Assembly (NCBI GenBank): GCA_964474825.1
Contig: CAYYWQ010000001.1
Coordinates: forward strand, 229,609-293,608
Length of the DNA stretch: 64,000 bases
From: an uncultured Candidatus Saccharibacteria bacterium
GTDB taxonomy: Bacteria; Patescibacteriota; Doudnabacteria; UBA920
Direction of reading: 5' to 3'
Shown here piece by piece: positions 22,275 to 45,990 of this stretch. How positions within the stretch are numbered: position 1 is the first letter of the stretch; every line of letters begins with the position of its first letter. The position numbers and the translations under genes were made by a program. Below the pieces are notes generated by a model. That model made no database searches. It was not told where the DNA came from and saw only the letters and a program-made list of their open reading frames with translations.

Positions 22275-22464
22275 AAATGGATCAGGGGTCAATCTTGGCG
22301 CGTATCCACCTTGACTGACCCCTGTGCTTTGGATTTGGTGATCTCCCGAACACCGTGTCCTTAGCAATAGTGGGCTTCAAAGCGCCCAAGTAAGATTATA
22401 CGCTGACAAGACAATGTCAGGCCGGCGGGAGAACCGACAAACTTACTTTGACACATTGAGCTTT

Positions 22465-22842
22465 TTAAGCGAAGGCAGTCTGAGAGAAGTCCTGGTTTGT
22501 TGCCGCGTCGGCATTTTCTTGGCAGGGAGTACAATGCTTCGCCCAAGGAATTGCATTCAACCTCTTGGTGCTGATGTCCTTGCCACAGTGGACACAGACA
22601 CCAAAGCCTCCTACCTCCATGCGAGTTTTGGCCGCCCGTACCTCTCTTAGGGTTTTTGATGCCTCATTCAGGTTTCGGATTTCCAGATCTCGCTCAGTGC
22701 TTTCACGTGCTGTGTCTTCATCGGGAGGGTGTCTGCCGTCGTCAGGGACTGTAATTCCCTCCCTATTTCGGACTGCCCGAGTCAGCTCTTGTTCTTTTGC
22801 GTCAAGAGCTTTTGCAAAGTTCTTCAACTCCGTACTTGTCAC
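22465..22842 (-). CDS. DksA/TraR-family C4 zinc-finger protein (in higher-GC island)
   Basis: C-terminal CVHCGKDISTKRLNAIPWAKHCTPCQE (CxxC-N17-CxxC); AAAGGGA RBS upstream on minus strand. Confidence 0.6.
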   Translation of the reverse strand: MTSTELKNFAKALDAKEQELTRAVRNREGITVPDDGRHPPDEDTARESTERDLEIRNLNEASKTLREVRAAKTRMEVGGFGVCVHCGKDISTKRLNAIPWAKHCTPCQENADAATNQDFSQTAFA

Positions 22843-23012
22843 TTTTCAAATCCCTTTCTAGAGAATTTTTCTGGGAGAATCGCACAACGAAAGAGGGCTA
22901 TTGCTAGCTTAAGCCCTCCTTAAGATTGGCGTTATTATAGTGAAAAAAATGGTAAAAGTCAATTAAAAATAGCTTATGTGTCTAACCTAAGCTATTTTTA
23001 ATTTAATTAGAA

Positions 23013-25100
23013 TTATTCAAAATGTATGACCTTGTCTTTTATTTTTTCTTTTAAGAGCGGGTAGTTATTCAATTCCAAATCACCTTTTAATATTTTTAAA
23101 GCTTCTTTGCGGGCTGGCTCAATTAACGAAGTGTAGGCCGGGGAAAAATATTTAAAGTTCCAACCGGATTGGGAGGAGCCGTAAATTTCGCCAAAGCCTC
23201 TTTGTTTTAAATCTAGTTCTGCCAGTTCAAAGCCGTCTGTAGTTTTTGTAAAATTTTCCAGGCGGTTTAGGGTTTCTTTTTGGGCATCTGTAAGAGGCAT
23301 GGCAACCGCCGTAGGCTCACTTGGCGCGGTAGGAAACAGGAAACAATAGCTTTGGTGCTCAGCACGCCCAACGCGCCCGCGGAATTGGTGTAATTGGGCC
23401 AGGCCAAACCGCTCCGCGCCTTCTATTAGCATAACCGAAGCATTTGGCACGTCTACGCCGACTTCTACCACAGATGTAGAAACCAAAATTTGGATTTTAT
23501 TTTCCAAAAATTCTTTCATTACATCTTCTTTTTCTTTGCCTTTTAAGCGCCCATGCATTAGGCCAATTTTGAATTGCGGAAAAAGTTTTTGTAAAATTTC
23601 AACTTCAGTTTTGGCGGCCTTTATGCCTAACTTATCACTTTCTTCAATTAAGGGGGTAATTACAAATACCTGCCTGCCTAATAAAATTTGCTCCTTAATA
23701 AATTTGTAAGCCTTTGCCCTGTCCTCGGCTTTTACTAATTTGGTAATTATGGCCTTGCGCCCCAGAGGCTTACTTTTAATTTGGGAAATTTCCAGTTCGC
23801 CATAATATGCCAACTGCAAAGTGCGGGGGATTGGAGTCGCGCTTAAAGAAAGCAAATGGGGGACCTTCCCTTTTCGGTTCATTAGTTCAGCCCGTTGCTC
23901 CACGCCAAAGCGGTGCTGCTCGTCAATAATTACCAAGGCCAGATTTTTAAATTTTACTTTTTTTTGCAAAAGCGCGTGTGTACCAATATATAGCCCGGGC
24001 ATTCCGTCTTGAATTAAGGCCTGAAGTTTAGGTTTACTAATTTCCTCACTGTTTATTTTAGAATAGGAATTGGTAATCAGCCCGATTTTTAATTTAGCAT
24101 TGGCAGATTTTAAAAATTTTGAGGCAGTTTGGAAATGCTGGTTGGCTAAAATTTCAGTTGGGGCCAAAAGTGCCACTTGGTATTCGCTAGTAATTGCCTG
24201 CAGTGCCGCCATAAGGGCCACTAAAGTTTTGCCACTGCCAACATCGCCTTCCAGCAGCCTGTTCATTGGTTCCGGTTTTTCCAAGTCCTGTAAAATTTCC
24301 CAGGCGGCCTTTTTTTGCCAGGAAGTTAATTGAAACGGCAGGGAATCCACAAAAGTTTTTATAAGTTCCTGGTCAAATTTTACGGCAAAAGATTTTTTAG
24401 CCTTAAGCTTTAACTTGTATTGCTGGGCTAATAGCTGGTTATAAAATATTTCTTCAAAAGCCAGTCGTTTTTTTGCTTCTTCTACGTCATTATTACTTTT
24501 TGGGAAATGTGAAAATTCCGCGGTCTGCTCTAAATTTAAGATTTTTTGGTTTTTTATAATAGTTTCGGGTAAAGTATCTACCAGCTGTGTTAAAGCGGGT
24601 AAAGCCGAAGCCACTAAATTGCGGAAAGTTTTAGGGTAGATTTTTTGGGAAAGATGGTATAACGGCACCAACCGGGCGGTGTGGACAGGGAAGTCTGAAA
24701 CTTTTTCGTACAGCGGATTTGTCAGCTGTAAAGTGTTTTTGTAATAGTCAGGAGCGCCGGCAAGGAAAACCTCGTCGCTCACTTGTAAATTGTTGGCAAT
24801 ATAGGCCTGGTTAAACCAGGTTACTTTAAGCGAACCGGTTTCGTCAGACACCACGGCTTCCGCAAGCGACATTCTGCTCCTAAAAGAAAACCGGCTGGAA
24901 ATATTTTTTATAGTTACGTGTAAAGAAATATTTTCACCCGCAACAATGTCTTTTATTTCTACCACTTTGGAAAAATCCAGGTAGCGGTAGGGGAAATGTA
25001 AAAGCAAATCCCGGACCGTTTTGATTCCAAGGTTTTTTAAAGCCGCAATAAGCGGCTTTTGGGTTTTGGGTAAATTTTCTATCGGGTCTTGGAGCAGCAT
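23013..25100 (-). CDS. recG: ATP-dependent DNA helicase RecG
   Basis: Walker A GDVGSGKTLVA, DEQHRFG (DEQH box), wedge/OB N-terminal domain. Confidence 0.9.
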   Translation of the reverse strand: MLLQDPIENLPKTQKPLIAALKNLGIKTVRDLLLHFPYRYLDFSKVVEIKDIVAGENISLHVTIKNISSRFSFRSRMSLAEAVVSDETGSLKVTWFNQAYIANNLQVSDEVFLAGAPDYYKNTLQLTNPLYEKVSDFPVHTARLVPLYHLSQKIYPKTFRNLVASALPALTQLVDTLPETIIKNQKILNLEQTAEFSHFPKSNNDVEEAKKRLAFEEIFYNQLLAQQYKLKLKAKKSFAVKFDQELIKTFVDSLPFQLTSWQKKAAWEILQDLEKPEPMNRLLEGDVGSGKTLVALMAALQAITSEYQVALLAPTEILANQHFQTASKFLKSANAKLKIGLITNSYSKINSEEISKPKLQALIQDGMPGLYIGTHALLQKKVKFKNLALVIIDEQHRFGVEQRAELMNRKGKVPHLLSLSATPIPRTLQLAYYGELEISQIKSKPLGRKAIITKLVKAEDRAKAYKFIKEQILLGRQVFVITPLIEESDKLGIKAAKTEVEILQKLFPQFKIGLMHGRLKGKEKEDVMKEFLENKIQILVSTSVVEVGVDVPNASVMLIEGAERFGLAQLHQFRGRVGRAEHQSYCFLFPTAPSEPTAVAMPLTDAQKETLNRLENFTKTTDGFELAELDLKQRGFGEIYGSSQSGWNFKYFSPAYTSLIEPARKEALKILKGDLELNNYPLLKEKIKDKVIHFE

Positions 25101-25105
25101 ATGAA

Positions 25106-25182
25106 TGGTGCACCCGGCAGGGATCGAACCTGCGACCTTTCCCTTCGGAGGGGAACGCTCTTATCCACTGAGCTACGGATGC
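25106..25182 (-). tRNA. tRNA-Arg (anticodon CCG), CCA encoded
   Basis: minus-strand sequence GCATCCGTAGCTCAGTGGATAGAGCG-TTCCC-CTCCGAA-GGGAA-...GGTTCGATCC...GGGTGCACCA folds as cloverleaf, 7-bp acceptor stem. Confidence 0.85.
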
Positions 25183-25216
25183 CGGTAGGGTGGCAGGTGG
25201 TCAAGATAGGATATAT

Positions 25217-25690
25217 TTAAAATTTAAACCTGTGGGTAATCCTTTGTATTGGGGTTTCCCGGCTTTCCTCATGTTCAGGCAAGTGCTTTATTAAAAACAT
25301 CCGGACAACTTCGGGATCTTGGTCTTCTAGTTCCAGTATCATTATGTTGTTAAGTAAAGCGGTGGTGTGTAAATTTAAAGTCTTATGGTTTTCGTTATGG
25401 ACAACCCAGAAGTGCTTGATTTGTTTGTAAGGAAACCGCAGGTTTCCAAAATGAACGCCTCTATTATTTAGTTCAATAGGAACTATTTCCGGTGTTTGGC
25501 GGGCGAAGAAAAAAACAAATCCCGAAATTATGGCCAAACTAACAGCGGCAAAAAAATCCCGCTGAATAATGAAAAATACAACTACCATTAGGCTAATACA
25601 TGTTAGAGTAATGTACCAGCCCGGATTTTTAGGATAATGCCTAAATTCCGGAGCCTCCCATGAAATTGTTGTTTGGTTTTCTGAGTCCAT
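25217..25690 (-). CDS. hypothetical two-TM membrane protein (PH/YdbT-like?)
   Basis: start at MDSENQ (25690) because the longer ORF would overlap tRNA-Ser; two TM helices near N-terminus. Confidence 0.45.
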   Translation of the reverse strand: MDSENQTTISWEAPEFRHYPKNPGWYITLTCISLMVVVFFIIQRDFFAAVSLAIISGFVFFFARQTPEIVPIELNNRGVHFGNLRFPYKQIKHFWVVHNENHKTLNLHTTALLNNIMILELEDQDPEVVRMFLIKHLPEHEESRETPIQRITHRFKF

Positions 25691-25714
25691 AAGTTTGAAA
25701 GACCTTGATTTTTT

Positions 25715-25804
25715 TGGCGGAGGCGAGAGGATTCGAACCTCTGAAGGACGTGAGCCCTTAACGGTTTTCAAGACCGTCCCGATAGACCGCTCCGGCACGC
25801 CTCC
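25715..25804 (-). tRNA. tRNA-Ser (anticodon TGA), long variable arm, CCA encoded
   Basis: GGAGGCGTGCCGGAGCGGTCTATCGGGA-CGGTC-TTGAAAA-CCG...long extra arm...AGGTTCGAATCCTCTCGCCTCCGCCA. Confidence 0.85.
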
Positions 25805-25929
25805 AAAGTATCTTTAATTTATTATAACACTTTATGCATCGTGTGACAAAATTTTTTACCTATCCTCCTTCGCTAAGGCTTCGGAGGATTGCTCTCTATG
25901 TTTATTATTTAATGTGGGCAACAAAAACA

Positions 25930-25958
25930 GTCCACCTCTAGAATGGACTGTTTTATAT
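25930..25958 (-). terminator. rho-independent terminator downstream of sigma/anti-sigma pair (minus strand)
   Basis: aacagtcca-cctctagaa-tggactgtt hairpin followed by T-run on minus strand. Confidence 0.5.
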
Positions 25959-26045
25959 ATGGGTTTCAAAGCTTCCGTGGACTGTCATCCTGATTTAAAG
26001 AAATAAAGAGGGTCTTTATTTCTTTGGTCAAAATATCAGTAGTTG

Positions 26046-27251
26046 TTAGTTCCCGCAGGAGTTGTTAGGGCATTGAGGCGTGGGATCTTCTATAATTAGC
26101 CCGCCCACTGCGGCGTTAGGGTCTGGAAGTATTATTAAAGTCTGAGGGCTGCTGCTTTCTAAGGTTGAAGAGGCGGAAGGTTTTTTGTCTGTTGCTACAG
26201 TGGAGGTGGAGCTAACGGCCACAGAGGTTCCTTTGACTTCCCCGTCCAAATTCGTCTGGGCCGCTAAGCTGACTTGGCGAAGTAAAAAGCCGGTATCGGT
26301 CTTGTCTCCCAAAATAGTTACGTTTTGGTTAATTTTTAAGTCACGGGAATTTATTACAGCATCCTCGTCGTTTTTGATTAAAGTAGCCTTGGTAAATGTA
26401 TAAATTTGTCCGTTAACAGTAAGAGTGTTGTAAGTTAACTGGGTGATTTTACCTGAAATAACCACGGCCGAAGGGTTGGAATTTAAAGCCGCAAGCGCTT
26501 GGTCGTTGCTTGCCGCGCCTAAATACTCGTCTATAACAGCTAACTTGGTCGCATTTTCTTTAGCTGCTGAAAGCACGGTTTTGTCTACGCTTGAGTCTTT
26601 ATTGGTTTCTAGTTTTTTAAGCAATGCCTGTTGTTTGGAAGTAATGGTTTGCAGGGAAGCAATGAGCGGATGGTCTTGGTTTATAGCATGTGTTTCTGTT
26701 TCGTTGGCTTTGTTTAAGGCGTTAATGGTATTTTGGGTTTCCGCGCCGAGTTCATTTAAAGCCGCTACTTGTTTTTCTGGATCATTTTGGGAATTTTCCA
26801 AAGCCGCCTGCACGTCGTCAATGCGTTTTTGGGCAATGGCGATTTGTAGGTTTATTTTTTCCTGCGGACTGGATGCTAACTGTAGTTGAGCATGTTCCGC
26901 GGCCTTTTTAAGACTAAAAAAAGTATCACCCGGCCTGCTGGAAGATGCCGCGAAACCGGCGCTTACTCCGGCTATTATAAAAATAAAAACAGAAGCGCCC
27001 ACCACAGCCAAGCGGGAAAAACGTATCCAATGGAGGAAAAGCGATTTGGCCGGGGCAAAAACATATTTTCTTTGCATGGCCGGTTCCGGTACTGCTTTTT
27101 TTGGTAAAGTCTTAAGCAGGTTTGCTATTTGGAGCAGGGGACTGAGTTCTTTGGAATGCAGCGGCCACTTTGAAAGTATTTCGGCCTGGGATTTTCCCTG
27201 GTCGAGTTGCTCAACAGCTTTATTTAATATTTCGTCAAAATTTTCGTTCAT
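26046..27251 (-). CDS. putative anti-sigma factor (cytoplasmic N-domain, single TM, extracytoplasmic coiled-coil domain)
   Basis: overlaps and immediately follows ECF sigma gene; single TM AVVGASVFIFIIAGVSAGFAA. Confidence 0.4.
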   Translation of the reverse strand: MNENFDEILNKAVEQLDQGKSQAEILSKWPLHSKELSPLLQIANLLKTLPKKAVPEPAMQRKYVFAPAKSLFLHWIRFSRLAVVGASVFIFIIAGVSAGFAASSSRPGDTFFSLKKAAEHAQLQLASSPQEKINLQIAIAQKRIDDVQAALENSQNDPEKQVAALNELGAETQNTINALNKANETETHAINQDHPLIASLQTITSKQQALLKKLETNKDSSVDKTVLSAAKENATKLAVIDEYLGAASNDQALAALNSNPSAVVISGKITQLTYNTLTVNGQIYTFTKATLIKNDEDAVINSRDLKINQNVTILGDKTDTGFLLRQVSLAAQTNLDGEVKGTSVAVSSTSTVATDKKPSASSTLESSSPQTLIILPDPNAAVGGLIIEDPTPQCPNNSCGN

Positions 27252-27834: not shown

Positions 27835-28090
27835 TTGTTACAAAGAAAAGGTTTATTAAACAATAAAACGGCAAATTGTCAAAATTGATTAAAATATCGC
27901 CGCAAAGACGGCGATATTATTCTAACATATTTTAAATAATTCTAAGTGATTTTTCTAAAGGTAAAGCTTTTAAACTATCTGCCCCTCGACTTCGCTCGGG
28001 ACACTCGACTCGCTTCAATTATAGGATGGTTGAGGCCTTTTAAGGGCCGAAACCACGAGCAAGCTTTGATGTTAGTCAAAGCGAGTCGAG

Positions 28091-28182
28091 TGGCGGAGAG
28101 GGGGGGATTCGAACCCCCGAAAGGTTTTGACACCTTTACCGGTTTAGCAAACCAGCGCACTAGGCCTCTATGCGACCTCTCC
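28091..28182 (-). tRNA. tRNA-Ser (anticodon GCT), long variable arm, CCA encoded
   Basis: GGAGAGGTCGCATAGAGGCCTAGTGCG-CTGGT-TTGCTAA-ACCGG...extra arm...GGGGGTTCGAATCCCCCCCTCTCCGCCA. Confidence 0.85.
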
Positions 28183-28381
28183 GGGTGAATGTAATATTTA
28201 AGAATTGCTTTGTCATTTTAACAAAGTTTGGAATTTCTGACAATGCTCCTTTGTTTGAAATAAATCACCCCGCGAAGCCTACACATGCTTTGTGTAAACT
28301 TCGCGGGGCTGTCGTTTTGCGTTAACGATAACGTTGCCTGCCTAGCCGGCAGGGAGTATGCGATTAACGTACGTCGGAGGA

Positions 28382-29623
28382 CTAGACCGAGTAGGTCCGG
28401 CCGCGGTGCTGTCCGAGAAGGATTTGCACCAGCCGGTGGGCGATCAGTTCGTGGAGCGTGAGCAGTTCACGGTTGGCCGCGGTAACGGCTTCGGCATCGT
28501 GCGGATCGGTAACGCCGGCGCCGCCGGCCTTCAGGGCGTCGGTGGCTTCCTTGATGATCGGGTCAGAGATGACTTCGCCTGCCATCTCCCATAGCGTGAT
28601 GAAGCGGTCCACGGCGCTCGGAAAGCTGACCTTGAAGACGCCGTAGTTGCTGGTGGTGCGTGGCGGTTTGAAATCGAGGTTGAACGGGCCGTTGTAGCCG
28701 TGGCTGCGCAGCAGCACCAGCACGTTCAGCCAGTCGAGCGGATTCACCAGCCCTACCGCGATATCCACATCGTGCTTCAGGCGGTAGCCGTCGTTGATGT
28801 CGAAGTGCCACAGCTTGCCGCACAGGAGTGCGCGAGCCAGCGATGCCCGGGGCGCGGCGCCCCACATCAACTCATGCAGGTACTCGGGGTTGAGCCCTAC
28901 CATCTCCGGATGCGTCAGCAGGCCTGAGGAAATGAAGGCCAGCATCGCGTCGCTGGTCGGAAGCAGGATCTCGGCCTGCGGTTCGAACGGCTTGGCCTCC
29001 ATACAGTGCTTCAGGGTGGGGTTGCCCTTTTCCTTTGCAATCTGGATATCGGCCTCGCAGGCGTGGTTCAGGGCGTCGGCGTACCAGCGAAGGGTCTGTG
29101 TCTCGTCGATCGCGCCCTGGACGTAGTAGCCGAGGGAACCGGGCCAGTAGACGGCGAACTGCGCGCCGAGCTCGTGCCCGATGTGAACCGTATTGGCCAG
29201 CCGGAACTTAGCGTACTCCCTTACATCTGGAGCTTCCGCCGCCGGACTGCCGGCGAACACCGCGTGATAGAACGTGTCCGTGGTGACCATCGAGCACTTG
29301 ACGTCGTGCTTCTTGAGGCATGTCTTGATGTGCTCAATCGCCATCCACTGCCACTCTTTTCCCAGGTGCTCGGTGGGGATAACGTCCGTGTCATGAGTGG
29401 TCCAGTAGCCGATTCCGATTTCGCCGAAATTGCGGATAGCCTCCTCAAATCCCACGGGTCCGCGGGTGGGGGCGTGGAATAGGGCGTCGCCTTCGTAAGC
29501 AGCGGCCCATTGGGGCCCGGAGATAAAGTATTTCCGGCGCGTTTCGGGGGAATAACCACCCCCGCACGCTTCCATGAGCCGATTAATCAGGGATTGCTGT
29601 TCGTTCACAGGGACTGGTTGCAT
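28382..29623 (-). CDS. xylA: xylose isomerase, class I (actinobacterial/Thermus type), in ~62% GC island
   Basis: long collinear similarity to class-I XylA: FHDTDVIP, AIEPKP-like EAKPFEPQ, ILLPT, GLNPE, HFDINDG, exact DFKPPRT; codon GC3 very high against AT-rich flanks. Confidence 0.85.
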   Translation of the reverse strand: MQPVPVNEQQSLINRLMEACGGGYSPETRRKYFISGPQWAAAYEGDALFHAPTRGPVGFEEAIRNFGEIGIGYWTTHDTDVIPTEHLGKEWQWMAIEHIKTCLKKHDVKCSMVTTDTFYHAVFAGSPAAEAPDVREYAKFRLANTVHIGHELGAQFAVYWPGSLGYYVQGAIDETQTLRWYADALNHACEADIQIAKEKGNPTLKHCMEAKPFEPQAEILLPTSDAMLAFISSGLLTHPEMVGLNPEYLHELMWGAAPRASLARALLCGKLWHFDINDGYRLKHDVDIAVGLVNPLDWLNVLVLLRSHGYNGPFNLDFKPPRTTSNYGVFKVSFPSAVDRFITLWEMAGEVISDPIIKEATDALKAGGAGVTDPHDAEAVTAANRELLTLHELIAHRLVQILLGQHRGRTYSV

Positions 29624-29815
29624 TTTCTTTTTCTTTCTCCTAAATGAAAAACCTCCTTTGAGCCTATATATCCGGCCTTCAAAAGAGGTTCGGCCAAGAA
29701 AACAATCTTGGCGGATTTATTAGTTTACAATTAAAAAAGCCTTTTGTCAAAGGCCAAAATTGGTTCAAATTAATAAAACTCATACTTAAATACTTGAGAA
29801 TGTAAGGATGAGTTT

Positions 29816-30580: not shown

Positions 30581-30606
30581 GAGGCGGGGTTTAAATATTT
30601 ATAAGC

Positions 30607-33353: not shown

Positions 33354-33357
33354 TTTT

Positions 33358-37217: not shown

Positions 37218-37224
37218 CGAGAGA

Positions 37225-37503: not shown

Positions 37504-37614
37504 TCTGCCGGTTTTTATTTTTGTCGAAATTGTGTTATAATTAATTGGTAAAAATATCGAACAGAAATAAAAATTTCATCTTTCGTTTAAAAGTCTGGCG
37601 AAGGAAATCTTGTT

Positions 37615-39972
37615 ATGGGATTTGTAGAAAAATTAAAAGACGGGGTCAATAGGTTTATTGACCAAATGGAAATTAACGATCTGGATTATAGGGTCCAGTT
37701 GGTTTTGCGCGAGCGCGAGGAGTTAAAAACCTGGACAGACCAGGAATTAAAATTATCCACACTCGCTTTTAAAGACGATTTAAAAAAAGGAAAACGTTTG
37801 GACAGTTTACTTGTGCAGGCTTTTGCGGTTGTTAACGAAGCGGCGCGGCGGGTGTACAAAAAATCTCCTTTTCCGGTGCAAATCTTAGCAGGGATGGTTA
37901 TTCATAAAGGAAGAGTGGTGGAAATGAAGGCCGGTGAAGGCAAGACTTTAATGGTCACTATGCCTGTGTATTTAAACGCACTTTTGGGAAAAGGCGTGCA
38001 TCTCGTAACCACGAACGATTATTTAGCCGAACGCGACGCCACACAAATGGGCAAGCTCTACAATTTTTTAGGGCTAACCGTCGCTCACGTAACTTCGGAA
38101 ATGAAGCCGGACGAACACCGGAAAGCTTATGCAGCGGATATAACTTATGTTTCTAACCAAGAAATCGGGTTTGATTATTTGAGAGATAATTTAGTTTTCC
38201 GTAAAGCCGACCGCGTTCTTAGGCAAGAGCATCCTTTATTTTTTGGAATTGTAGACGAAATTGACAGCATTTTAATAGACGAGTCGCGGACCCCTTTAAT
38301 TATTGCCGAGGCGGTAAAAGAGGAAAGGAATTTTTACGACCAGTTTACCGAAATTGTTACTAAGTTAGAGGAAGAAAAAGATTATGTGGTAGATTACGTC
38401 CATAAAACAGTGGCAATGACAGACGCGGGCTTAAACAATGTGGAGAATCTTTTGGGCAGCAAAGTTTTTGACCAAGACAACCCAATGTACGTGTTTTATT
38501 TGGACGTATGCTTGCGGGCCAAGGTTTTGTTTGAAAAAGACCGGGACTATATTATAACTTCCGAGGGAGTGGAAATTGTAGACGAATTTACCGGCCGCGT
38601 CCTGCCCGGCCGCAGGTTTACAGACGGCGTTCACCAGGCCATTGAGGCCAAGGAACAAATTAAAATAAAAGACTCCGACCGCACTTCCGCTGCCATTACT
38701 TTCCAGAATTTTTTTCCGCTTTATGAAAAGCTTTCAGGCATGAGCGGCACGGTCATGCGTTCGCGCGACGAGTTTAACCGGGTTTATAAACTGGACGTAA
38801 TCCGCGTGCCTACCAACCGTCCGGTTGTCCGCGTTGATCATAATAATTTGTTTTTCAAAACCCAAAAAGGTAAATTTTTGGGATTGGTAAAAAAAATAAA
38901 ACAAATCCATGGGCGGGGACAGCCTTTGCTAATTGGCGCTCGTAACGTGGAAACCGCTCATGTGGTGGCAAAAATTTTAGAAGCGGAAAATTTACCCTAC
39001 CAATTACTTACGGCAGCGGACCACAAGGCCGAAGCAGAAAAAGTTGAACGCGGCGGGCAGTCGGGGATGATCACCGTAGCCACAAATATGGCGGGGCGGG
39101 GGACAGACATTTTGCTTGGTCAGGGCGTGGAGCAAAGCGGAGGGCTTTTTGTGCTTGGAACTGAAAGGCATGAATCAAGAAGGATCGATGATCAGCTTAT
39201 TGGCCGCTCAGGCCGCCAGGGTGAACCCGGCGAGTCGCAGTTCTTAATTAGTATGGAAGACGAAATTATGCAGTTGTTCGGCAGCGAAAGCATTATTGAC
39301 GCCATGGAGCAGCTAGATATGGCCGAAGACGAATACATTTCGGGTAAAGGGCTGGACGAAGCTTTTGAACGGGCCCAAACTTTTGTGGATAGCCGTAATT
39401 TTGACTCGCGTATTTATTTATACAAATATGACAGCGTAACCAGTTTCCAGCGCAAGGCTATTTATAGTTTGCGGAATTCGCTTTTGGAAAATGCATCCGG
39501 CTTTGAGGATTTTTTGCAGACTGCCGTGGCTTCAGAAATTGAAAGGATTTTAGCTATTGGCAACGCAAAATTAATAACCGCGGAATTTTTAAAAATATTT
39601 TTTGTTGAAGTGGACGAACAAGAATTGGGAGGATTGCTTAAATCGCCAAATAAAAAAGGCGAGGGAATAGACCTTATAAAAAATCGCCTCGGCGGCTATT
39701 TGCTCGACAGGGCTAAAAAAATCCAGGCCCAAGGGCAGGATTTTATAACAGCCCAAAGCCTGGTCCTGCAAATAATAGACAACAACTGGAGCAATCAACT
39801 GGAATTAATGGACGTGCTAAAAGAGGAGGCGTCGCTTTTTTCCTACGCCTCGCAAGATCCGCTTATAGATTATATTTTGGAAGCCAATAAACTCTTTGAC
39901 CACATGCAGCAGGACATTAAGACCCAATTGGTTAAAGCAATTTTTATTTATTTGAACCAGCATGGGCTGTAA
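37615..39972 (+). CDS. secA: preprotein translocase ATPase SecA
   Basis: MKAGEGKTLMVTMPVYLNALLGKGVHLVTTNDYLAERDA (Walker A/DEAD motor), 785 aa. Confidence 0.9.
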   Translation: MGFVEKLKDGVNRFIDQMEINDLDYRVQLVLREREELKTWTDQELKLSTLAFKDDLKKGKRLDSLLVQAFAVVNEAARRVYKKSPFPVQILAGMVIHKGRVVEMKAGEGKTLMVTMPVYLNALLGKGVHLVTTNDYLAERDATQMGKLYNFLGLTVAHVTSEMKPDEHRKAYAADITYVSNQEIGFDYLRDNLVFRKADRVLRQEHPLFFGIVDEIDSILIDESRTPLIIAEAVKEERNFYDQFTEIVTKLEEEKDYVVDYVHKTVAMTDAGLNNVENLLGSKVFDQDNPMYVFYLDVCLRAKVLFEKDRDYIITSEGVEIVDEFTGRVLPGRRFTDGVHQAIEAKEQIKIKDSDRTSAAITFQNFFPLYEKLSGMSGTVMRSRDEFNRVYKLDVIRVPTNRPVVRVDHNNLFFKTQKGKFLGLVKKIKQIHGRGQPLLIGARNVETAHVVAKILEAENLPYQLLTAADHKAEAEKVERGGQSGMITVATNMAGRGTDILLGQGVEQSGGLFVLGTERHESRRIDDQLIGRSGRQGEPGESQFLISMEDEIMQLFGSESIIDAMEQLDMAEDEYISGKGLDEAFERAQTFVDSRNFDSRIYLYKYDSVTSFQRKAIYSLRNSLLENASGFEDFLQTAVASEIERILAIGNAKLITAEFLKIFFVEVDEQELGGLLKSPNKKGEGIDLIKNRLGGYLLDRAKKIQAQGQDFITAQSLVLQIIDNNWSNQLELMDVLKEEASLFSYASQDPLIDYILEANKLFDHMQQDIKTQLVKAIFIYLNQHGL

Positions 39973-40010
39973 CGCACGGAAGCGGGGGACTACACAAACC
40001 TATATAACTT

Positions 40011-40019
40011 TGGTATAAT
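40011..40019 (+). promoter_or_regulatory. extended -10 promoter (TGGTATAAT) placing TSS at or next to the gatC ATG (leaderless)
   Basis: tggtataat ends 6 nt before ATG 40026; no SD sequence possible. Confidence 0.35.
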
Positions 40020-40025
40020 TTGGTC

Positions 40026-40307
40026 ATGTTGACCACGGAAGAAGTCAAAAAAATCGCGCTTTTGGCGCGAATTGAATTAACAGAAGCCGAGGTGGAAAAG
40101 TTCCGTAAGGACCTTTCCACTGTTTTAGATTACGTAGACGAGTTAAAAAAAGTAAATGTAGAAGGCTTGGAAGAAGTGTCGCAAGTGACCGGATTGGTTA
40201 ACGTGCAAAGGGATGACAAGCCTGTAGTTGCAAGCAACCGCGAAGAAATATTTTCTCAAGCCCCAGAAATGAAAGATGGGTTTTATAAAGTGAAATCGAT
40301 TCTTTAG
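40026..40307 (+). CDS. gatC: Asp/Glu-tRNA amidotransferase subunit C
   Basis: MLTTEEVKKIALLARIELTEAEVEKF typical GatC N-terminus. Confidence 0.8.
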   Translation: MLTTEEVKKIALLARIELTEAEVEKFRKDLSTVLDYVDELKKVNVEGLEEVSQVTGLVNVQRDDKPVVASNREEIFSQAPEMKDGFYKVKSIL

Positions 40308-40313
40308 CTAAAT

Positions 40314-41795
40314 ATGGAATTCACACATTTATCTTTAACAGAATTAAGAAAACTCCTTGACGACAAAAAAGTTTCGTCTGTTGAATTGACGAAGTATTTT
40401 TTGTCGCGTATAAAACAGCACGACAAAGACCTTAATTCTTTTATTACAGTCTCAGAGGAAGAAGCTTTAAAGCAGGCTCAGGAAGCAGACAATTACATGG
40501 CGAGTGGCGGTGAGAACCCATTACTGTGCGGTATTCCATACGCGGCCAAAGACATGTTTTTAACTAAAGGAATCCGCACTACCGCAGGCAGCAAAATTTT
40601 GGACAATTATATTCCGCCTTACGACTCCACAATCATTTCCAAATTAAAAGACCAAAAAGCTGTCCTACTTGGCAAAACCAACCAAGACCAATTCGCCCAC
40701 GGCAGCAGCGGGGAAAGCTCAGCTTATGGTTTTACTTTTAACCCATGGGACAAAACTAGAATGCCTGCCGGGTCTTCTTCGGGCAGCGGCGCGGCAGCTG
40801 CAGCTGGGTTGGCTCCTTATGCATTAGGGACCGACACTGGCGGAAGCATTCGCGGGCCGGCCAGTATGTGCGGCATTACCGGATTCAAACCAACATATGG
40901 CCGTACCAGCCGGTACGGCGTAATTTCTATGGCATCCAGCATGGACACCCAGGGCTTTTTATGCGGCTCGGCTGAGGAAGCGGCGCAGTTGGCAGAAGTA
41001 ATTTCCGGTTATGACCCAAAAGATTCCTCCACCGGGAATGTTGAAGTGCCAAATTATTCTAAAAATTTAAACAAAGACCTTAAGGGTGTTAAAGTCGGAA
41101 TTCCAAAAGAATATTTTGTGAAAGGTATGGAGCCGGGAGTGGAAGCACGGGTGCGAGAGGCTATTAAGGAAATAGAAAAGTTAGGCGCGGAAATTGTGGA
41201 GGTAAGTTTACCACATACACATTACGGACAAATGGTTTACGCAATAATTTGTCCTTCAGAAGTTTCCTCTAACCTTGCCAAGTACGACGGTATTCGTTTT
41301 GGCCACTCAACCAAAAATGCAAAAGATTTAATGGAAGTTTATACCAAAAGTCGCGCCGAAGGTTTTGGCGACGAAGCCAAGCGTAGAATTATGACCGGGA
41401 CTTATGTTTTAAGCGCCGGCTATTACGATGCGTATTACAAACGGGCGCAAAAAATTAGGCGCCTAATTATAAATGACTTCGAGGAAGTTTTTAAAAAGGT
41501 AGATGTATTGCTTACGCCAACCCAGCCTAACGTGGCGCCTAAATCTGGCATTGCCCAGAATGACCCAATTTTTGCTTACATTGCCGACCAGCTTGTTGTA
41601 AACTGCAACTTAGCGGGCATCCCGGCTTTGTCTGTGCCATGCGGCTTTAGCAAAGCTACAGACGGAGACGTAGAACTGCCCGTGGGCTTACAAATAATTG
41701 GCCCGCAATGGGGTGAGCAAAAGATTTTTAATGTGGGTTATGCATATCAGCAGGCCACAGATTGGCACAAAAAACATCCTAATATTATTACTTAA
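40314..41795 (+). CDS. gatA: Asp/Glu-tRNA amidotransferase subunit A
   Basis: amidase signature AGSSSGSGAAAAAGLAPYALGTDTGGSIRGPAS. Confidence 0.9.
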   Translation: MEFTHLSLTELRKLLDDKKVSSVELTKYFLSRIKQHDKDLNSFITVSEEEALKQAQEADNYMASGGENPLLCGIPYAAKDMFLTKGIRTTAGSKILDNYIPPYDSTIISKLKDQKAVLLGKTNQDQFAHGSSGESSAYGFTFNPWDKTRMPAGSSSGSGAAAAAGLAPYALGTDTGGSIRGPASMCGITGFKPTYGRTSRYGVISMASSMDTQGFLCGSAEEAAQLAEVISGYDPKDSSTGNVEVPNYSKNLNKDLKGVKVGIPKEYFVKGMEPGVEARVREAIKEIEKLGAEIVEVSLPHTHYGQMVYAIICPSEVSSNLAKYDGIRFGHSTKNAKDLMEVYTKSRAEGFGDEAKRRIMTGTYVLSAGYYDAYYKRAQKIRRLIINDFEEVFKKVDVLLTPTQPNVAPKSGIAQNDPIFAYIADQLVVNCNLAGIPALSVPCGFSKATDGDVELPVGLQIIGPQWGEQKIFNVGYAYQQATDWHKKHPNIIT

Positions 41796-41798
41796 ACA

Positions 41799-42176
41799 AT
41801 GACTTATTTTACAAAATATTCTTATCTTTCAGCCCGACTTTATTCGACGTTTGAAGAATTATACAAATATAATCCCAATAGCGGCGGCGATTTTATTGGT
41901 TATTCTCAAGCAAGGGGAAAATTTATACTTTATTACGGATCCTTATTTATATTTATAATTCTTTTGCTCAGCAAAATTATTTGGGATAGCAGAATAAATC
42001 ACGGCTTGTTTATTGTGTTTTCAGTTTTAACTTTTGGAACTATAATAGGTTTTATTTCTGATTTAGTGAGAATCCGTATATTTAAAAAAAGGAGCCTCCG
42101 CGAAGGAAATTTAGTGTATGAGTCAGGTTTGTTAATTTTGGGAAATAAAAAGTATTCATTGGAACATTTAGAATAA
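41799..42176 (+). CDS. hypothetical small membrane protein inserted between gatA and gatB
   Basis: two TM helices; 125 aa. Confidence 0.45.
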   Translation: MTYFTKYSYLSARLYSTFEELYKYNPNSGGDFIGYSQARGKFILYYGSLFIFIILLLSKIIWDSRINHGLFIVFSVLTFGTIIGFISDLVRIRIFKKRSLREGNLVYESGLLILGNKKYSLEHLE

Positions 42177-42178
42177 AA

Positions 42179-43672
42179 ATGAAAGAATTTCCATCTTCAA
42201 CTGAATATCAGCCGGTAATTGGGTTTGAAATCCATATTCAGCTTGCTACTAAGAGCAAGATGTTTAGTGCTGCGCCAAATAATCCGGACCAGGCAGTTCC
42301 TAATACTAATATAGACGAGGTGGTAACTGCCCAGCCCGGAACTTTGCCAGTGGCTAATAAAGAGGCTATAAAATTAGCAGCAATGGTTGGCTTGGCTTTA
42401 AATTGCACTATAGACGAGTGGAGCAAGTTTGACCGTAAGCATTATTTTTATCCGGACTTGCCCAAGGGCTATCAAATTTCCCAGTATGATCAGCCAATTG
42501 CCAAGAATGGTTATTTGGACGTGGTAGTCGCCGGAAAAACTAGGCGCATAAATATTACGCGTGCTCATTTGGAGGAAGACGCAGGTAAAAACATTCATCC
42601 CGAAGGTTTGCCCTATTCTTTGGTGGACTATAACAGGGCCGGCTGTGCGCTCTTGGAAATTGTTTCTGAGCCCGACATAGAAAGTGGCGCCGAAGGCAGG
42701 GCATATTTGGAAGAAATTAGGAATATTGTGCGCTATTTGGGAGTGTCTTCGGCGGATATGGAAAAAGGTTTAATGCGCTGCGAGCCAAGTATTAGCGTAA
42801 GAAAACCCGGGGAGACAACTTTGCCAAAATATAAAGTGGAAGTTAAAAATATTAACAGCATTAGTTTTGCCGAGGCTGCTATAAATTACGAAATCGCCCG
42901 CCAAACAGAAATTTTAAAAGAAGGCGGCACGCCCAAACAGGTTACTATGGGTTGGAACGAAAAGCAGGGGATTACTGTAGAACAAAGAAGTAAAGAAGAG
43001 GCGAACGACTATCGCTACTTTCCGGAACCGGACTTACCTGTGTTACAATTTACTCAGGAATATTTAAACGACCTACGGGCGCATATGCCAGAACTTCCCG
43101 AGCAAAAAAGAAAGCGGTTTTTGGAAGAATATAATTTACCAGCCGCAGACGTAGCGAATTTAATAAACTGGAAAGACTTGGCCAACTATTTTGAAGATGT
43201 GGTAAGTGAAATAGATGCCTGGATGGAAGAAGAGAAAGGCCTAGACCGCAACGCTTTAATTAAACAAGCAACCAACTGGTGCTTGCAAGATTTTTCCGCT
43301 GCGTTAAATGCAAAGTTAATGAAGCCGCAAGACTCTACAGTAACGCCCGAAAATTTTGCGGAATTAATTAAATTAATGGCCCAAGGAAAAATTTCCGGCA
43401 GCGCGGCTAAAACTGTATTTAAAGTTATGTTTGAAAAAGGCGGCGACCCTTCTAATATAGTGGAAGATATGGGTCTTCACCAGGTAAGCGACGAATCTGC
43501 AATAGCCGAAGCCTTAGACAAAGTTATATCCGCCAACGCAAAAGCAGTAACAGACTACAAATCCGGCGAACAAAAAAGTTTTGGTTTTCTGGTTGGTCAA
43601 ACCATGAAAGAGTTAAAAGGCAAAGGAAACCCACAAGTTATAAACGAGTTATTGAAAAAGAAATTATTGTAG
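42179..43672 (+). CDS. gatB: Asp/Glu-tRNA amidotransferase subunit B
   Basis: YQPVIGFEIHIQL N-terminus, C-terminal GatB/YqeY domain GFLVGQTMKELKGKGNP. Confidence 0.9.
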   Translation: MKEFPSSTEYQPVIGFEIHIQLATKSKMFSAAPNNPDQAVPNTNIDEVVTAQPGTLPVANKEAIKLAAMVGLALNCTIDEWSKFDRKHYFYPDLPKGYQISQYDQPIAKNGYLDVVVAGKTRRINITRAHLEEDAGKNIHPEGLPYSLVDYNRAGCALLEIVSEPDIESGAEGRAYLEEIRNIVRYLGVSSADMEKGLMRCEPSISVRKPGETTLPKYKVEVKNINSISFAEAAINYEIARQTEILKEGGTPKQVTMGWNEKQGITVEQRSKEEANDYRYFPEPDLPVLQFTQEYLNDLRAHMPELPEQKRKRFLEEYNLPAADVANLINWKDLANYFEDVVSEIDAWMEEEKGLDRNALIKQATNWCLQDFSAALNAKLMKPQDSTVTPENFAELIKLMAQGKISGSAAKTVFKVMFEKGGDPSNIVEDMGLHQVSDESAIAEALDKVISANAKAVTDYKSGEQKSFGFLVGQTMKELKGKGNPQVINELLKKKLL

Positions 43673-43757
43673 TATTTTTATCAAATTTAAAGGCGGGGGG
43701 AACTTTGACATTCCGTACCCGCCTTTGAGCTTGTTGAGCATTTTTTTGCCGACTGCT

Positions 43758-43781
43758 AGCGCCTCTGTGGGCGCTTTTTTG
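43758..43781 (+). terminator. rho-independent terminator after gatB
   Basis: agcgcc-tctgtgg-gcgct hairpin followed by tttttt. Confidence 0.5.
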
Positions 43782-43788
43782 ACAGTGG

Positions 43789-44397
43789 TTACGCCTTACG
43801 CCGCCGCAGCCACAGCAAGCAGCTCGCCCCGCTGCCCATCAGAAGGAGCGAGGACGGCTCGGGCGTTAGCGTTGTTGCCCTTTGCTGGCCTATATAGGGC
43901 AACACATCACCGTTGACGTCGGTGATATTAAGGACGCTAAAAAAAAGCTCGTCCCCAACGTCGTGGTGGGAGGTGCCGGTCCAAAATAGAAAATCTCCCA
44001 AGTTCGGTACCCAGGGGGTAACGATCACCGGCCCAAAGGTTGGACCGTTAAAACCGCCTCCGGAGCTGGTAAGCTCCGCCCAGGGGCCCGGTATTGGAGA
44101 CGTCATTTCAAAATCTGTCTCATACCAGAGCCCGCCCGGCCTGACACCGAACGAACCCACGCCGTAGCCGGTTGGTGTCGGGCCCGTGCCGTCCCAGCCT
44201 TCTTCGATGTAGACCGATCCGAAGATCAGCCAGTCAATCGAAGCCCCGTCCGGCATGCCGTTATTGGTGAGTTTAAAGCTGTAAGAGAACAGTCCTCCGG
44301 CTTGGGGTGTTACGGAGTACTCCAAGGTTAGGGGTTCCGCCCCGGCAAACATCGCCATGGCGAAAATCAGAAAAGCAAGCGCGAGAATGCGCGACAT
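43789..44397 (-). CDS. PEP-CTERM sorting-domain secreted protein (high-GC island)
   Basis: signal peptide; C-terminal TPEP + hydrophobic SSLLLMGSGASCLLWL + RRRKA = PEP-CTERM tripartite motif. Confidence 0.6.
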   Translation of the reverse strand: MSRILALAFLIFAMAMFAGAEPLTLEYSVTPQAGGLFSYSFKLTNNGMPDGASIDWLIFGSVYIEEGWDGTGPTPTGYGVGSFGVRPGGLWYETDFEMTSPIPGPWAELTSSGGGFNGPTFGPVIVTPWVPNLGDFLFWTGTSHHDVGDELFFSVLNITDVNGDVLPYIGQQRATTLTPEPSSLLLMGSGASCLLWLRRRKA

Positions 44398-44549
44398 GAT
44401 TTAGGTCTCCTTGTGGTTTTCGATTGTTGATCAGAAGGTTTTTTGTACACTCGAGACGTACAAAAATTACTACTGCTGATCTCAGTAGATAACCGCATAG
44501 TATATCAAAAAACCCTTGAAATGTCAAGGGTTTTTGTAAATACAATAAG

Positions 44550-45461
44550 CTATTTTAAGTATTTTGAAACAACGTGTGCTGCTTTTTTAGGTTCTTTTAA
44601 CCAAATAATTTCTTTGTTCCTTTTCCACCAAGTCATTTGTCTTTTACTATAGTGTTTTATTGCGTATGAAAGTTGCACGAACATTTCATCTTCCGTAAGT
44701 TTTTTTTGTAAATACTGGGAGACAAATTTGTATTCCAAACCAAAAGATTCCAGTTTTTTCCAGGACAAACCAACTTTATGGAGTTTTTGAACTTCTTTAA
44801 TCATTCCGGCTTTGAGGCGCTGTTTTAACCGCACGTCTATTTTTTTGTATAAAGTTTTTTGGTCAACATTAATTCCCAGCCACAGAGCCTTGCCGTTAAA
44901 TGATTTTAAAATTGGAATCGGTTTTCCAGTTGCTAGAATAATTTCCAAAGCACGAATAAGACGGCGTTTGTTGTGGCGGTCAATGTTTTTGGCGCGGGTG
45001 GGGTCTAGTTTTTGAAGGCGCTTAAATAAAATATATGCGTTTTGTTTTTCCAGTTTTAGTCTAAGCCTAAGATTAGGTTTGATATTTGGAATTTCTTGAT
45101 TATAAACTACTGCGTCTATCCATTGTGCTGTTCCGCCGCACAAAATGGGAAGTTTACCGCGCTTGGTAACATCAGCAATAACTTTTTTGGCCTCTTTCTG
45201 AAACTCTGCAACTGAATATTGTTTTTTGGGATTTATAAAATCTATAAGGTGGTGGGGGATTTCTTTATAAAAATATTGTAATCCCTCGCGGCCACGATTT
45301 ATTACAATTTCCCACTTTCCTTCTACTTTGCCTGTTCCCAAATCCATTCCTTTATAAATTTGCCGGCTGTCAGCGGAAATTATTTCACCTTTAAAGCGCT
45401 TTGCGAGCTGGACTGCCAGTTCAGATTTTCCGGAGCTTGTCGACCCTACTATTGCAATCAT
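44550..45461 (-). CDS. miaA: tRNA dimethylallyltransferase MiaA
   Basis: P-loop IAIVGSTSSGKSELAVQLA, ISADSRQIYKGMDLGTGK; internal Met chosen as start. Confidence 0.85.
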   Translation of the reverse strand: MIAIVGSTSSGKSELAVQLAKRFKGEIISADSRQIYKGMDLGTGKVEGKWEIVINRGREGLQYFYKEIPHHLIDFINPKKQYSVAEFQKEAKKVIADVTKRGKLPILCGGTAQWIDAVVYNQEIPNIKPNLRLRLKLEKQNAYILFKRLQKLDPTRAKNIDRHNKRRLIRALEIILATGKPIPILKSFNGKALWLGINVDQKTLYKKIDVRLKQRLKAGMIKEVQKLHKVGLSWKKLESFGLEYKFVSQYLQKKLTEDEMFVQLSYAIKHYSKRQMTWWKRNKEIIWLKEPKKAAHVVSKYLK

Positions 45462-45503
45462 TTTGTTAAAAATGTATAATTTGTCCATTAAAGGGAGGAA
45501 TTA

Positions 45504-45803
45504 GTGTTAGAAGAAATGTTAAAAAGGAACGGTGGAGTCTTGGAGTTTGACTCCGCACGGTTTTCCTTCTCGGATTCGAAGAAGGACGACTCAGAGTTTT
45601 TTGCCCAGCTTGCTGAGTTAATTGAGCGGGGGAATGCAATTGCGGTAACACTCGTTCGCTACCAGGTCATGCTTCCGGCCTGTCAGATAATTTGTTTGGT
45701 TCTGCGTTCCCACGAACTGTTCGACCAGGTAATGGCGGAGTCCGAGGCTGGAAAGCTATGGTTTGACATACTGAGGAATCGCAAGGGCAGGCCCTGCGAA
45801 TAA
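45504..45803 (+). CDS. hypothetical small protein in ~50% GC patch with own terminator
   Basis: ORF followed by hairpin + T-run at ~45866-45897. Confidence 0.25.
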   Translation: MLEEMLKRNGGVLEFDSARFSFSDSKKDDSEFFAQLAELIERGNAIAVTLVRYQVMLPACQIICLVLRSHELFDQVMAESEAGKLWFDILRNRKGRPCE

Positions 45804-45990
45804 CTCAGCCCTTGACCAGCTTGCCGCCATTTCCTTTGCCACTGGCTCCACTTCGAAGCCCGGCCCCGTGCAGTTTCATGCGGGGTCGGTTTTTTACTTC
45901 CCGTTTTTTCCCCTTAGTTACGACTTCGTCAAAAATTTTCTTGCGCATAAGTTTATTGAGTAATATAATATTATTATAGCATTTTTATTT

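Follow-up and report, generated by a model that had tools for sequence, protein, structure and literature searches.

An isomerase gene of apparent acidobacterial origin and a probable second foreign gene in intergenic slots of a Candidatus Doudnabacteria chromosome

The 64,000-nucleotide stretch of DNA analysed here (the window; positions 229,609 to 293,608 of contig CAYYWQ010000001.1) is a strongly syntenic part of a chromosome of Candidatus Doudnabacteria, a lineage of the Candidate Phyla Radiation (CPR, Patescibacteria). The window has a GC content of 43.3% and its contig is 1,211,450 bp long in NCBI. An initial annotation had described five short GC-rich units within it as foreign inserts. 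Two of these, a xylose-isomerase-like (XI-like) gene and a gene for a PEP-CTERM protein, exceed the native compositional variation. The reading that we hold with good confidence is that foreign and variable genes sit in a few intergenic slots: the gap between ComF and tRNA-Ser holds an isomerase gene from Acidobacteriota, the gap between GatB and MiaA probably holds a PEP-CTERM gene from a diderm bacterium, and the rest are accessory or orphan genes of the lineage. The genes of the five units are the following.

22465-22842, minus strand: DksA/TraR-type zinc-finger gene (PF01258, 37.4 bits), at the convergent RadA/RecG junction
28268-29623, minus strand: XI unit, a class-I xylose-isomerase-like TIM-barrel gene (PF01261; open reading frame (ORF) 28382-29623, 413 aa) with a GC-rich 3' untranslated region (UTR)
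36150-37217 (longest ORF from 36096), plus strand: HisI (PRA-CH)-SLOG fusion gene (PF01502 and PF18306; LDcluster4, TIGR00725)
37225-37503, plus strand: orf37, in one unit with the HisI-SLOG gene; terminator at 37485-37515
43789-44397, minus strand: PEP-CTERM gene, for a secreted protein of 202 aa that has a beta-sandwich and a PEP-CTERM anchor; promoter-like site at 44499-44527
45504-45889, plus strand: orf45, an orphan ORF (99 aa) in the gap from MiaA to the cupredoxin gene; terminator at 45860-45889, promoter-like site at 45452-45480

Two compositional outliers among five units

Recomputing GC gene by gene showed that the coordinates and GC values of the initial annotation were accurate. 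The GC content was 0.516 for the DksA-like gene (22465-22842), 0.617 for the XI-like gene (28382-29623), 0.508 for the HisI-SLOG gene (36096-37217), 0.580 for the PEP-CTERM gene (43789-44397) and 0.497 for orf45 (45504-45803), with a window mean of 0.433. It was also correct that each unit carries one or two genes flanked by promoter-like and terminator-like sites, except that the DksA-like gene has no terminator-like site of its own. On the other hand, the statement that the units interrupt native operons was too strong, as all five occupy intergenic space between conserved genes and leave every gene intact.

The host reference had a median GC of 0.433 and a per-gene GC at third codon positions (GC3) with a median of 0.433 and an SD of 0.078. 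Against this reference the GC3 outliers were the XI-like gene (0.795, z +4.6; GC z +3.7) and the PEP-CTERM gene (0.680, z +3.2), followed by orf45 (0.59, z +2.0), the HisI-SLOG gene (0.52, z +1.1) and the DksA-like gene (0.50, z +0.9). Codon usage was assessed by a per-codon log-likelihood ratio between native usage and a Bryobacteraceae (acidobacterial) model. The z values were -8.3 for the XI-like gene, -4.9 for the PEP-CTERM gene and about -2.5 for the other three units, while the next native gene reached -2.1.

Sliding 400-bp windows outside the five units had a mean GC of 0.425 (SD 0.044) and a maximum of 0.555. The peaks of the XI (0.642) and PEP-CTERM (0.603) units exceeded this native maximum and that of the HisI-SLOG unit did so marginally (0.562), whereas the DksA (0.522) and orf45 (0.515) units stayed below it; a GC of 0.50-0.555 was also reached by 12 other regions, all within conserved genes. 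Two-state change-point fits were compared with 15 native control stretches, among which twice the log-likelihood difference was at most 47.3. The XI unit scored 155.5 (28268-29582), the PEP-CTERM unit 76.7 (43692-44394), the HisI-SLOG unit a borderline 53.8 and the orf45 unit 27.2, and the best segment around the DksA-like gene was not a high-GC one. The edges of the XI and PEP-CTERM units are sharp, with high GC from the start codon to the stop codon or about 110 bp beyond it. Of the sharp boundaries claimed for every unit, these two pairs stood, while the scores of the DksA and orf45 units fell within the controls. Thus, two of the five units are compositional outliers that exceed native variation, and the DksA-like, HisI-SLOG and orf45 units, with a GC of about 0.50-0.52, are at or inside that variation (HisI-SLOG borderline above).

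Structured RNA was considered as a source of the high GC and rejected. The Rfam gathering scan of the window gave three tRNAs only, and nothing credible came from E-value scans of 45.3-46.1 kb and 63.5-64 kb or from a gathering scan of seven relatives' loci; these scans identified none of the units as structured RNA. One more island had been listed at the 3' edge of the window. The last 400 bp there have a GC of 0.48 and contain two terminator hairpins followed by what appears by eye to be the 3' end of a convergent minus-strand gene that continues beyond the window; this region is not evaluable as an island.

The isomerase-like gene between ComF and tRNA-Ser(GCT)

Homology searches returned 2078 homologues of the XI-like protein, and the best organism-named ones, 80-84% identical, come from Bryobacteraceae, Candidatus Solibacter or Acidobacteriota. 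Among the top 120 matches (79-84% identity) every organism-named one belongs to these same groups, and the closest homologue, JGI protein P0121, is 89% identical. In metagenome-assembled genomes (MAGs) of Bryobacteraceae the family gene is found among genes for catalase, Fur, signal peptidase and DUF885, in ordinary chromosomal loci of about 65% GC. The nucleotide similarity of the XI unit to a Bryobacteraceae locus is 77.6% and covers the ORF only. Acidobacterial copies have GC3 values of 0.80-0.91, and the window gene is found at the bottom edge of this range; the host value is 0.43. The ratio of nonsynonymous to synonymous substitution rates (dN/dS) between the window gene and the acidobacterial copies is 0.09-0.13, equal to that among those copies. 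The gene is intact and under purifying selection.

The immediate surroundings of the gene are made up of the following features.

28091-28182, minus strand: tRNA-Ser(GCT) (ARAGORN and Rfam), native left neighbour of the insert; promoter-like site at 28215-28243
28267-28309, minus strand: XI terminator in the 3' UTR, a 19-bp stem with a U tail
29624-29815, minus strand: AT-rich spacer upstream of the XI gene, with the ComF terminator hairpin (29738-29755) and a Shine-Dalgarno-like GGAG
29722-29750, minus strand: promoter-like site TTGACA-17-TAAACT ahead of the XI gene, whose ATG is at 29623
29816-30580, minus strand: ComF-type phosphoribosyltransferase (Pfam PF00156 and PF18912), native right neighbour of the insert

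Read along the minus strand, the ComF stop codon (29816) is followed by the terminator hairpin and promoter, an AT-rich leader with the GGAG, the XI ORF and the GC-rich 3' UTR. Between the XI terminator and tRNA-Ser(GCT) lies an AT-rich stretch that bears the promoter-like site of the tRNA.

Relatives of the window were found as 35 SecA loci from species-representative genomes and 60 RecG loci from metagenomes, mostly labelled Candidatus Doudnabacteria or Patescibacteria; compared loci and contigs are referred to by L-numbers. The closest relatives are about 75% identical in SecA. Gene order along the backbone is kept. Its first part runs PD40-RadA / RecG-tRNA-Arg-hypothetical gene-tRNA-Ser(TGA)-DUF5667-sigma-tRNA-Ser(GCT)-ComF-ClpC / RecX / HtpX-LemA, and its second part LemA / (TrpR ...) SecA-GatC-GatA-GatB / MiaA / cupredoxin-HolB-BNR-RRF. 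The order ComF-ClpC-RecX-HtpX-LemA is common to more than 20 Doudnabacteria loci. Within this conserved frame tRNA-Ser(GCT) and ComF are 64-280 bp apart in L055, L048, L023 and L044, compared with 1634 bp in the window. No XI homologue was found in about 50 Doudnabacteria loci, and the gene is absent from the gap in every relative that covers it. Taken together, homology, composition and position make a single-gene transfer from an acidobacterial, Bryobacteraceae-like donor the well-supported explanation of the XI-like gene.

The initial annotation had named this gene xylA. It does encode a class-I xylose-isomerase-like paralogue, which aligns over its full length with Streptomyces xylose isomerase structures (class I, actinobacterial type; E about 1e-42). 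However, it scores 172.9 bits with the NCBI equivalog model TIGR02631, below the cut-off of 447. Its motifs THDTD, EAKPFEP, NPEYLHE, HFDIND, KHDVD and NLDFKP align with FHDDD, EPKPNEP, NPEVGHE, HIDLN, KYDQD and HFDFKP of the Streptomyces enzyme. We take the roles of the aligned residues (catalytic His/Asp and Lys; Glu, His and Asp as metal ligands) to be those of class-I xylose isomerase, and judging from the alignment all catalytic and metal residues are kept. In comparison with class I D-xylose isomerase, the protein thus shares the full-length alignment, the catalytic His, Asp and Lys and the metal ligands; it differs in its sub-equivalog score and in belonging to a large acidobacterial paralogue family whose substrate is only predicted.

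Several observations weigh against a simple account of this transfer. The nearest sampled homologue is only 89% identical and the synonymous divergence (dS) from sequenced copies is about 1, so neither the donor species nor the age of the transfer is fixed. SecA identity to the relatives is 75% at most, and with relatives this distant an absence does not date the insertions. Lineage-specific substitutions in the window copy comprise 60 strong-to-weak (S>W) and 15 weak-to-strong (W>S) changes, and the acidobacterial L107 shows a similar bias (47 and 19), which makes the amelioration test uninformative: no amelioration beyond that of a genuine acidobacterial lineage is demonstrable. Neither microhomology nor a recombinase signature was found at the units. 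Finally, the segment 28007-29163, which comprises the junction on the tRNA side and the XI gene's distal 1.15 kb, was not matched by any Logan contig.

This last point touches on the integrity of the assembly, since the initial annotation had allowed for a chimeric or engineered sequence, in which high-GC segments would be DNA of other organisms misjoined into a Doudnabacteria contig. Logan short-read contigs (L001-L008) from the runs SRR14271372, SRR14271365 and SRR14271366 were assembled separately and are 100% identical to the window without gaps. Many of the window proteins are also recorded in Logan assemblies of SRA runs. The contigs cover the window as follows.

18223-24788: L003, across the DksA-like unit
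21968-26736: L004, likewise across the DksA-like unit
ends at 27947: L007, left of the XI unit
ends at 28007: L006 and L008, left of the XI unit
29163-31661: L005, from ClpC through ComF and the spacer into the XI gene, of which it covers the first 460 bp
33789-45076: L001, across the HisI-SLOG and PEP-CTERM units
40885-47826: L002, across the PEP-CTERM and orf45 units

Both junctions of the DksA, HisI-SLOG, PEP-CTERM and orf45 units are spanned, and with the ComF/XI junction independent contigs of three runs cross nine of the ten junctions at full identity. In favour of a chimera one can cite the donor-like composition of the XI gene without measurable amelioration, the ends of Logan contigs at 28007 and 29163, and the fact that the full-length XI protein is recorded from the NCBI contig only; the Logan records gave no match either to the full protein or to a guessed k-mer-overlap fragment of its C terminus. 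The edges of the insert, however, coincide with a start codon, a native-type promoter and Shine-Dalgarno sequence, and a terminator, and they fall exactly between the ComF terminator and the tRNA promoter. The breaks have another explanation as well. Acidobacterial homologues, even those only 77% identical, share exact 31-38-mers with the XI gene (28677-28714 and 28782-28820), and co-resident copies would branch a k=31 graph; we think that the Logan assembly was probably broken within the gene in this way. An assembly chimera or contamination is thereby essentially excluded.

Two independent Logan contigs stop, at 28007, within a hairpin-rich element of about 100 nt (27985-28090) that lies directly 3' of tRNA-Ser(GCT). 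Within this element a GGCC...GGCC stem is framed by an inverted repeat of 12 nt (28003-28014 with 28079-28090); the element has no Rfam match.

Delivery of the units by a site-specific mobile element, be it a tRNA-targeting integrase island, an integron cassette or a phage remnant, is highly improbable in our view. It is true that the XI unit adjoins a tRNA gene, that each outlier unit has the size of an ORF and ends in a 3' structure, which makes it superficially cassette-like, and that DksA/TraR-type zinc-finger proteins occur in phages (phrog_54). However, no integrase, transposase or phage structural gene was found in or beside any unit, and neither direct nor inverted repeats were found beside the units or in common among them (flanking direct repeats of at least 14 nt were searched for); att sites were likewise not found. 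The XI unit contains a single TIM-barrel ORF and no integrase gene, and it was inserted on the 5' side of the minus-strand tRNA-Ser(GCT) without a duplicated tRNA 3' segment. Each of the specific candidates was rejected on such grounds. A tRNA-targeted integrative island does not fit the missing integrase, the insert 5' of the tRNA and the missing flanking repeat. An integron cassette does not fit the 3' end of the XI unit, where a nested hairpin stands with an ordinary U-tailed terminator with a 19-bp stem (attC was judged by inspection), nor the lack of a shared repeat and of an integrase in the window. For a prophage or integrative and conjugative element (ICE) remnant, the DksA-like zinc finger gave the only PHROG match, and the VirB4/PrgI cluster of the window lies outside all islands. 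The proposal of gene-sized foreign DNA without phage or ICE hallmarks is accordingly supported by the XI-like gene.

A variable slot between GatB and MiaA

The PEP-CTERM gene lies in an intergenic gap whose occupants differ between relatives.

43673-44549: GatB/MiaA intergenic slot, a hypervariable site in the syntenic backbone, 70 bp to 2.3 kb long in relatives
L023:16618-17523, L039:6997-7791 and, nearby, L033:17618-18394: PEP-CTERM proteins as occupants in relatives
L016:16603-17649 and L044:17876-18919: a shared 347-aa secreted protein as occupant in relatives

The anchor of the window protein passes the curated cut-offs of PF07589 (25.2 bits, cut-off 20.7) and TIGR02595 (23.9 bits, cut-off 16), and the C terminus contains the PEP motif, a transmembrane helix and an Arg cluster. 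The AlphaFold2 model (mean predicted local distance difference test score 90) is a beta-sandwich with an N-terminal signal-type helix (2-16) and a second helix at 181-201. A fold search gave no PDB match at E <= 0.001, with weak likenesses to immunoglobulin-like or carbohydrate-binding-module-like beta-sandwiches. A word-seeded homologue search returned the query itself alone, and an exhaustive search returned 143 relatives, of which the best are 46-47% identical. One member of the family is on a contig of 5.6 Mb, one comes from a Fimbriimonas MAG (the sole organism named by the cluster look-ups), and another is on a 423-kb contig of a secretin-bearing diderm bacterium, where the composition of the gene (GC 0.48 in a 0.50 locus) is native. 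A 44%-identical homologue lies at L109:179-922. It is a sharply bounded, high-GC single gene (GC 0.57; GC3 0.63 versus about 0.31) on an unrelated contig of 35-38% GC with CPR-like content (PilB/T2SSE, DHH, TsaE, VanW and RuvB).

From these observations we consider it likely that the PEP-CTERM gene of the window is foreign and came from a GC-richer diderm bacterium. The competing explanation is that the gene, rather than having been imported recently, evolves fast as a resident of a hypervariable locus for surface proteins, with a GC3 intrinsic to the locus, for example through putative GC-biased gene conversion at a recombination hotspot. We regard this as possible, though the less probable of the two. 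Several observations favour it. In at least five further Doudnabacteria the slot is occupied by secreted or PEP-CTERM proteins, and of seven substantial occupants, six have a GC3 that exceeds that of their own backbone by 0.07-0.25. The occupants of L016 and L044, and those of L023, L039 and L033, are homologous but diverged beyond the backbone (25-44% identity across lineages versus 64-87% for backbone proteins), as fits old residents that have retained a high GC3. Since the other occupants are GC3-enriched and yet homologous, high GC3 may reflect the locus and need not mark a recent import. The codon usage of the window gene is intermediate and not donor-like, and no homologue exceeds 47% identity. 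The gene could thus be an older resident than its composition implies. On the other side, a homologue of the N-terminal domain went undetected in any compared Doudnabacteria locus, the homologues in large-genome diderm bacteria have a composition that is native there, and the GC3 of the remaining secreted proteins in the window is ordinary. A comparison of the GatB/MiaA gaps among relatives in search of a conserved non-coding element yielded alignments of short patches close to miaA and nothing more.

The four PEP-CTERM ORFs at GatB/MiaA are the only ones in 784 kb of compared Doudnabacteria DNA. PEP-CTERM/exosortase is a protein-sorting system of diderm bacteria that produce extracellular polymeric substances (TIGR02595, PF07589). 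As far as we are aware, CPR genomes are expected to lack an outer membrane. The window protein resembles proteins of this system in its signal-type helix, beta-sandwich, PEP motif, transmembrane helix and Arg cluster, and its anchor scores above the cut-offs; it differs in being encoded by a CPR genome with no exosortase within the 64-kb window. A full-text literature search gave no paper linking PEP-CTERM or exosortase to CPR-encoded proteins, and the recurrence of PEP-CTERM proteins in one Doudnabacteria slot appears to be a side observation for which no precedent was found in the literature. It could bear on how Doudnabacteria build their cell surface. A bolder idea, to which we give little credence, is that the slot has been refilled repeatedly with secreted surface proteins of GC-richer diderms, many of them with a PEP-CTERM anchor. 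Together with the isomerase gene, these would mark physical partners or hosts, e.g., Bryobacteraceae, and a monoderm-like CPR cell would use an exosortase-type sorting signal or host-mimicking proteins.

Accessory units, entry of DNA and known systems

The DksA-like gene reached 64.2 bits with TIGR02420 (cut-off 115.5) and is a member of the DksA/TraR family rather than an established DksA. Syntenic homologues with 34-44% identity are present in L048, L051 and L052 and absent from L047, L049, L050 and L055, and those of L048 and L051 are GC-enriched over their own backbone. A homologue search returned the query only, with no close homologue anywhere. This is a variable accessory gene of the lineage.

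The HisI-SLOG gene and orf37 are likewise a native accessory module. They occupy a variable slot between LemA and SecA that measures 150 bp to 3.9 kb in relatives, directly downstream of a TrpR-family repressor gene:

35681-36007, plus strand: TrpR-family repressor, directly upstream of the HisI-SLOG gene

At the same site, after TrpR and before SecA, L017 has the full fusion (63%), L019, L022, L024 and L044 have SLOG or HisI parts, and orf37 homologues are found in L012, L015 and L022. The fusion of a phosphoribosyl-AMP cyclohydrolase (HisI) to a SLOG/LOG-like domain is unusual. For orf45 no Pfam, NCBIfam, PHROG or Rfam match and no homologue in relatives was found, and it forms a singleton cluster.

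With these positions in hand, it is very unlikely that natural transformation brought in all five units recently and independently as foreign fragments of gene size. The idea draws on the codon test, in which all five rank lowest in the window for native-like usage (z -2.4 to -8.3), on the self-contained build of every unit, with a promoter-like site and, in all but the DksA-like one, a terminator-like site, and on the failure to find a close homologue of the DksA-like gene or orf45 anywhere. Against it, the DksA-like gene and the HisI-SLOG/orf37 module stand at the same positions in several Doudnabacteria, the GC3 z value is no more than +0.9 for the DksA-like gene and +1.1 for the HisI-SLOG gene, and 12 native intragenic regions match their local GC. 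The change-point scores of the DksA and orf45 units lie inside the controls. Furthermore, a low-GC gene lies between gatA and gatB and keeps this position in some 17 of 25 relatives, which shows that the gene-intrinsic composition varies widely in this lineage without transfer.

The count of at least five inserts is therefore reduced to one foreign gene (XI-like) and one probably foreign gene (PEP-CTERM), next to two positionally conserved Doudnabacteria units (DksA-like and HisI-SLOG/orf37) and an orphan with native-range GC (orf45). The homology check proposed in the initial annotation likewise separated the acidobacterial XI protein from the PEP-CTERM protein with matches of at most 47% identity and from the DksA-like and orf45 proteins without close homologues; in the presence/absence check the XI gene was absent from relatives, and the DksA-like and HisI-SLOG genes stood at the same positions in several. 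As most of the apparent islands turn out to be ordinary lineage genes, caution is advisable before every 50%-GC patch in a 43%-GC genome is called foreign.

The gene between gatA and gatB (41799-42176, plus strand) has a GC of 0.296 and encodes a predicted 125-aa membrane protein. A gap of comparably low GC, 340-450 bp or longer, is seen at this place in about 17 of the 25 Doudnabacteria loci, and sequence similarity among the genes in these gaps was undetectable. The window gene is apparently a small gene that is typical of the lineage and splits gatCAB. Two other tRNA genes of the backbone are, like tRNA-Ser(GCT), interleaved with protein genes in an order kept in relatives:

25106-25182, minus strand: tRNA-Arg(CCG)
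25715-25804, minus strand: tRNA-Ser(TGA)

The 5' end of a listed ORF of 193 aa (25217-25798) runs into tRNA-Ser(TGA), which means that the actual gene is shorter. Further to the left, a 174-aa protein with a PaaX central / Cas2-like domain (PF20803, PF09827) is encoded at 6826-7350 on the plus strand. It stands alone, and neither a CRISPR array nor further cas genes were noticed around it in the window.

The region 7631-19641 (notably 13927-14367 and 15143-16987) contains a Patescibacteria-type chromosomal cluster that resembles type IV secretion systems. It includes a PrgI/VirB3-family protein and a VirB4/TraG-P-loop ATPase at 13.9-17 kb, 85-89% identical in relatives, and is flanked by large proteins (1209, 475 and 861 aa) without a Pfam match. 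The 13.9-17 kb cluster matches the type IV secretion-like system described earlier (PMC12102498).

A transformation-type capture is a plausible route for the foreign DNA. DNA of lysed or attached neighbours, or of a host, may enter through competence-type uptake or through the type IV secretion-like system. It would then be integrated by illegitimate or microhomology recombination at harmless sites, such as positions downstream of a terminator, between the ends of convergent genes or ahead of a tRNA promoter, and deletion bias in the 1.2-Mb genome might trim the insert to one useful ORF. The ComF-type gene, RadA and the PrgI/VirB4 cluster are possible entry-route genes in the window. The initial annotation had connected the islands with ComF, RadA, RecG and RecX. 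This connection did not hold, as these genes, like PrgI/VirB4, belong to the backbone and keep the same order in relatives that lack the islands, so their proximity is no evidence on the mechanism.

For uncultured episymbionts, the identity of a donor is one of few handles on their partners. The Doudnabacterium here is probably symbiotic, and the Bryobacteraceae-like donor is accordingly a testable lead for its host or a close neighbour.

Integration hotspots between core genes are well known, and the classical ones are mostly multi-gene islands with mobile-element genes. The window resembles them in its syntenic backbone with gain and replacement concentrated at GatB/MiaA, LemA/SecA, RecG/RadA and ComF/tRNA-Ser; it differs in that the occupants are one or two genes without mobility genes. 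Soil CPR including Doudnabacteria have laterally gained the cytochrome bo3 (cyo) operon (mSystems 2021, PMC8407418), which is another case of Doudnabacteria acquiring metabolic genes from non-CPR bacteria. In contrast to the multi-gene cyo operon, whose gain was inferred by phylogeny, the window has a single isomerase-like gene with donor composition. More broadly, hundreds of individually transferred genes and islands from diverse donors have been reported for Patescibacteria, with competence, conjugation and transduction proposed as routes (mSystems 2025, PMC12455944). That study used aquifer MAGs, the donor had to be in the same data set, and its table contains no Acidobacteriota donor. The transfers described there and the present one are alike as single foreign genes in streamlined CPR genomes with donors from unrelated phyla. 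What sets the present case apart is the apparently Bryobacteraceae-like donor, the Doudnabacterium recipient and a site resolved to the base between ComF and tRNA-Ser(GCT). Single-gene transfer into CPR genomes is thus already established, and the XI unit is a clean further example, in which a gene that seems to have moved from Acidobacteriota into a CPR genome can be followed at base resolution.

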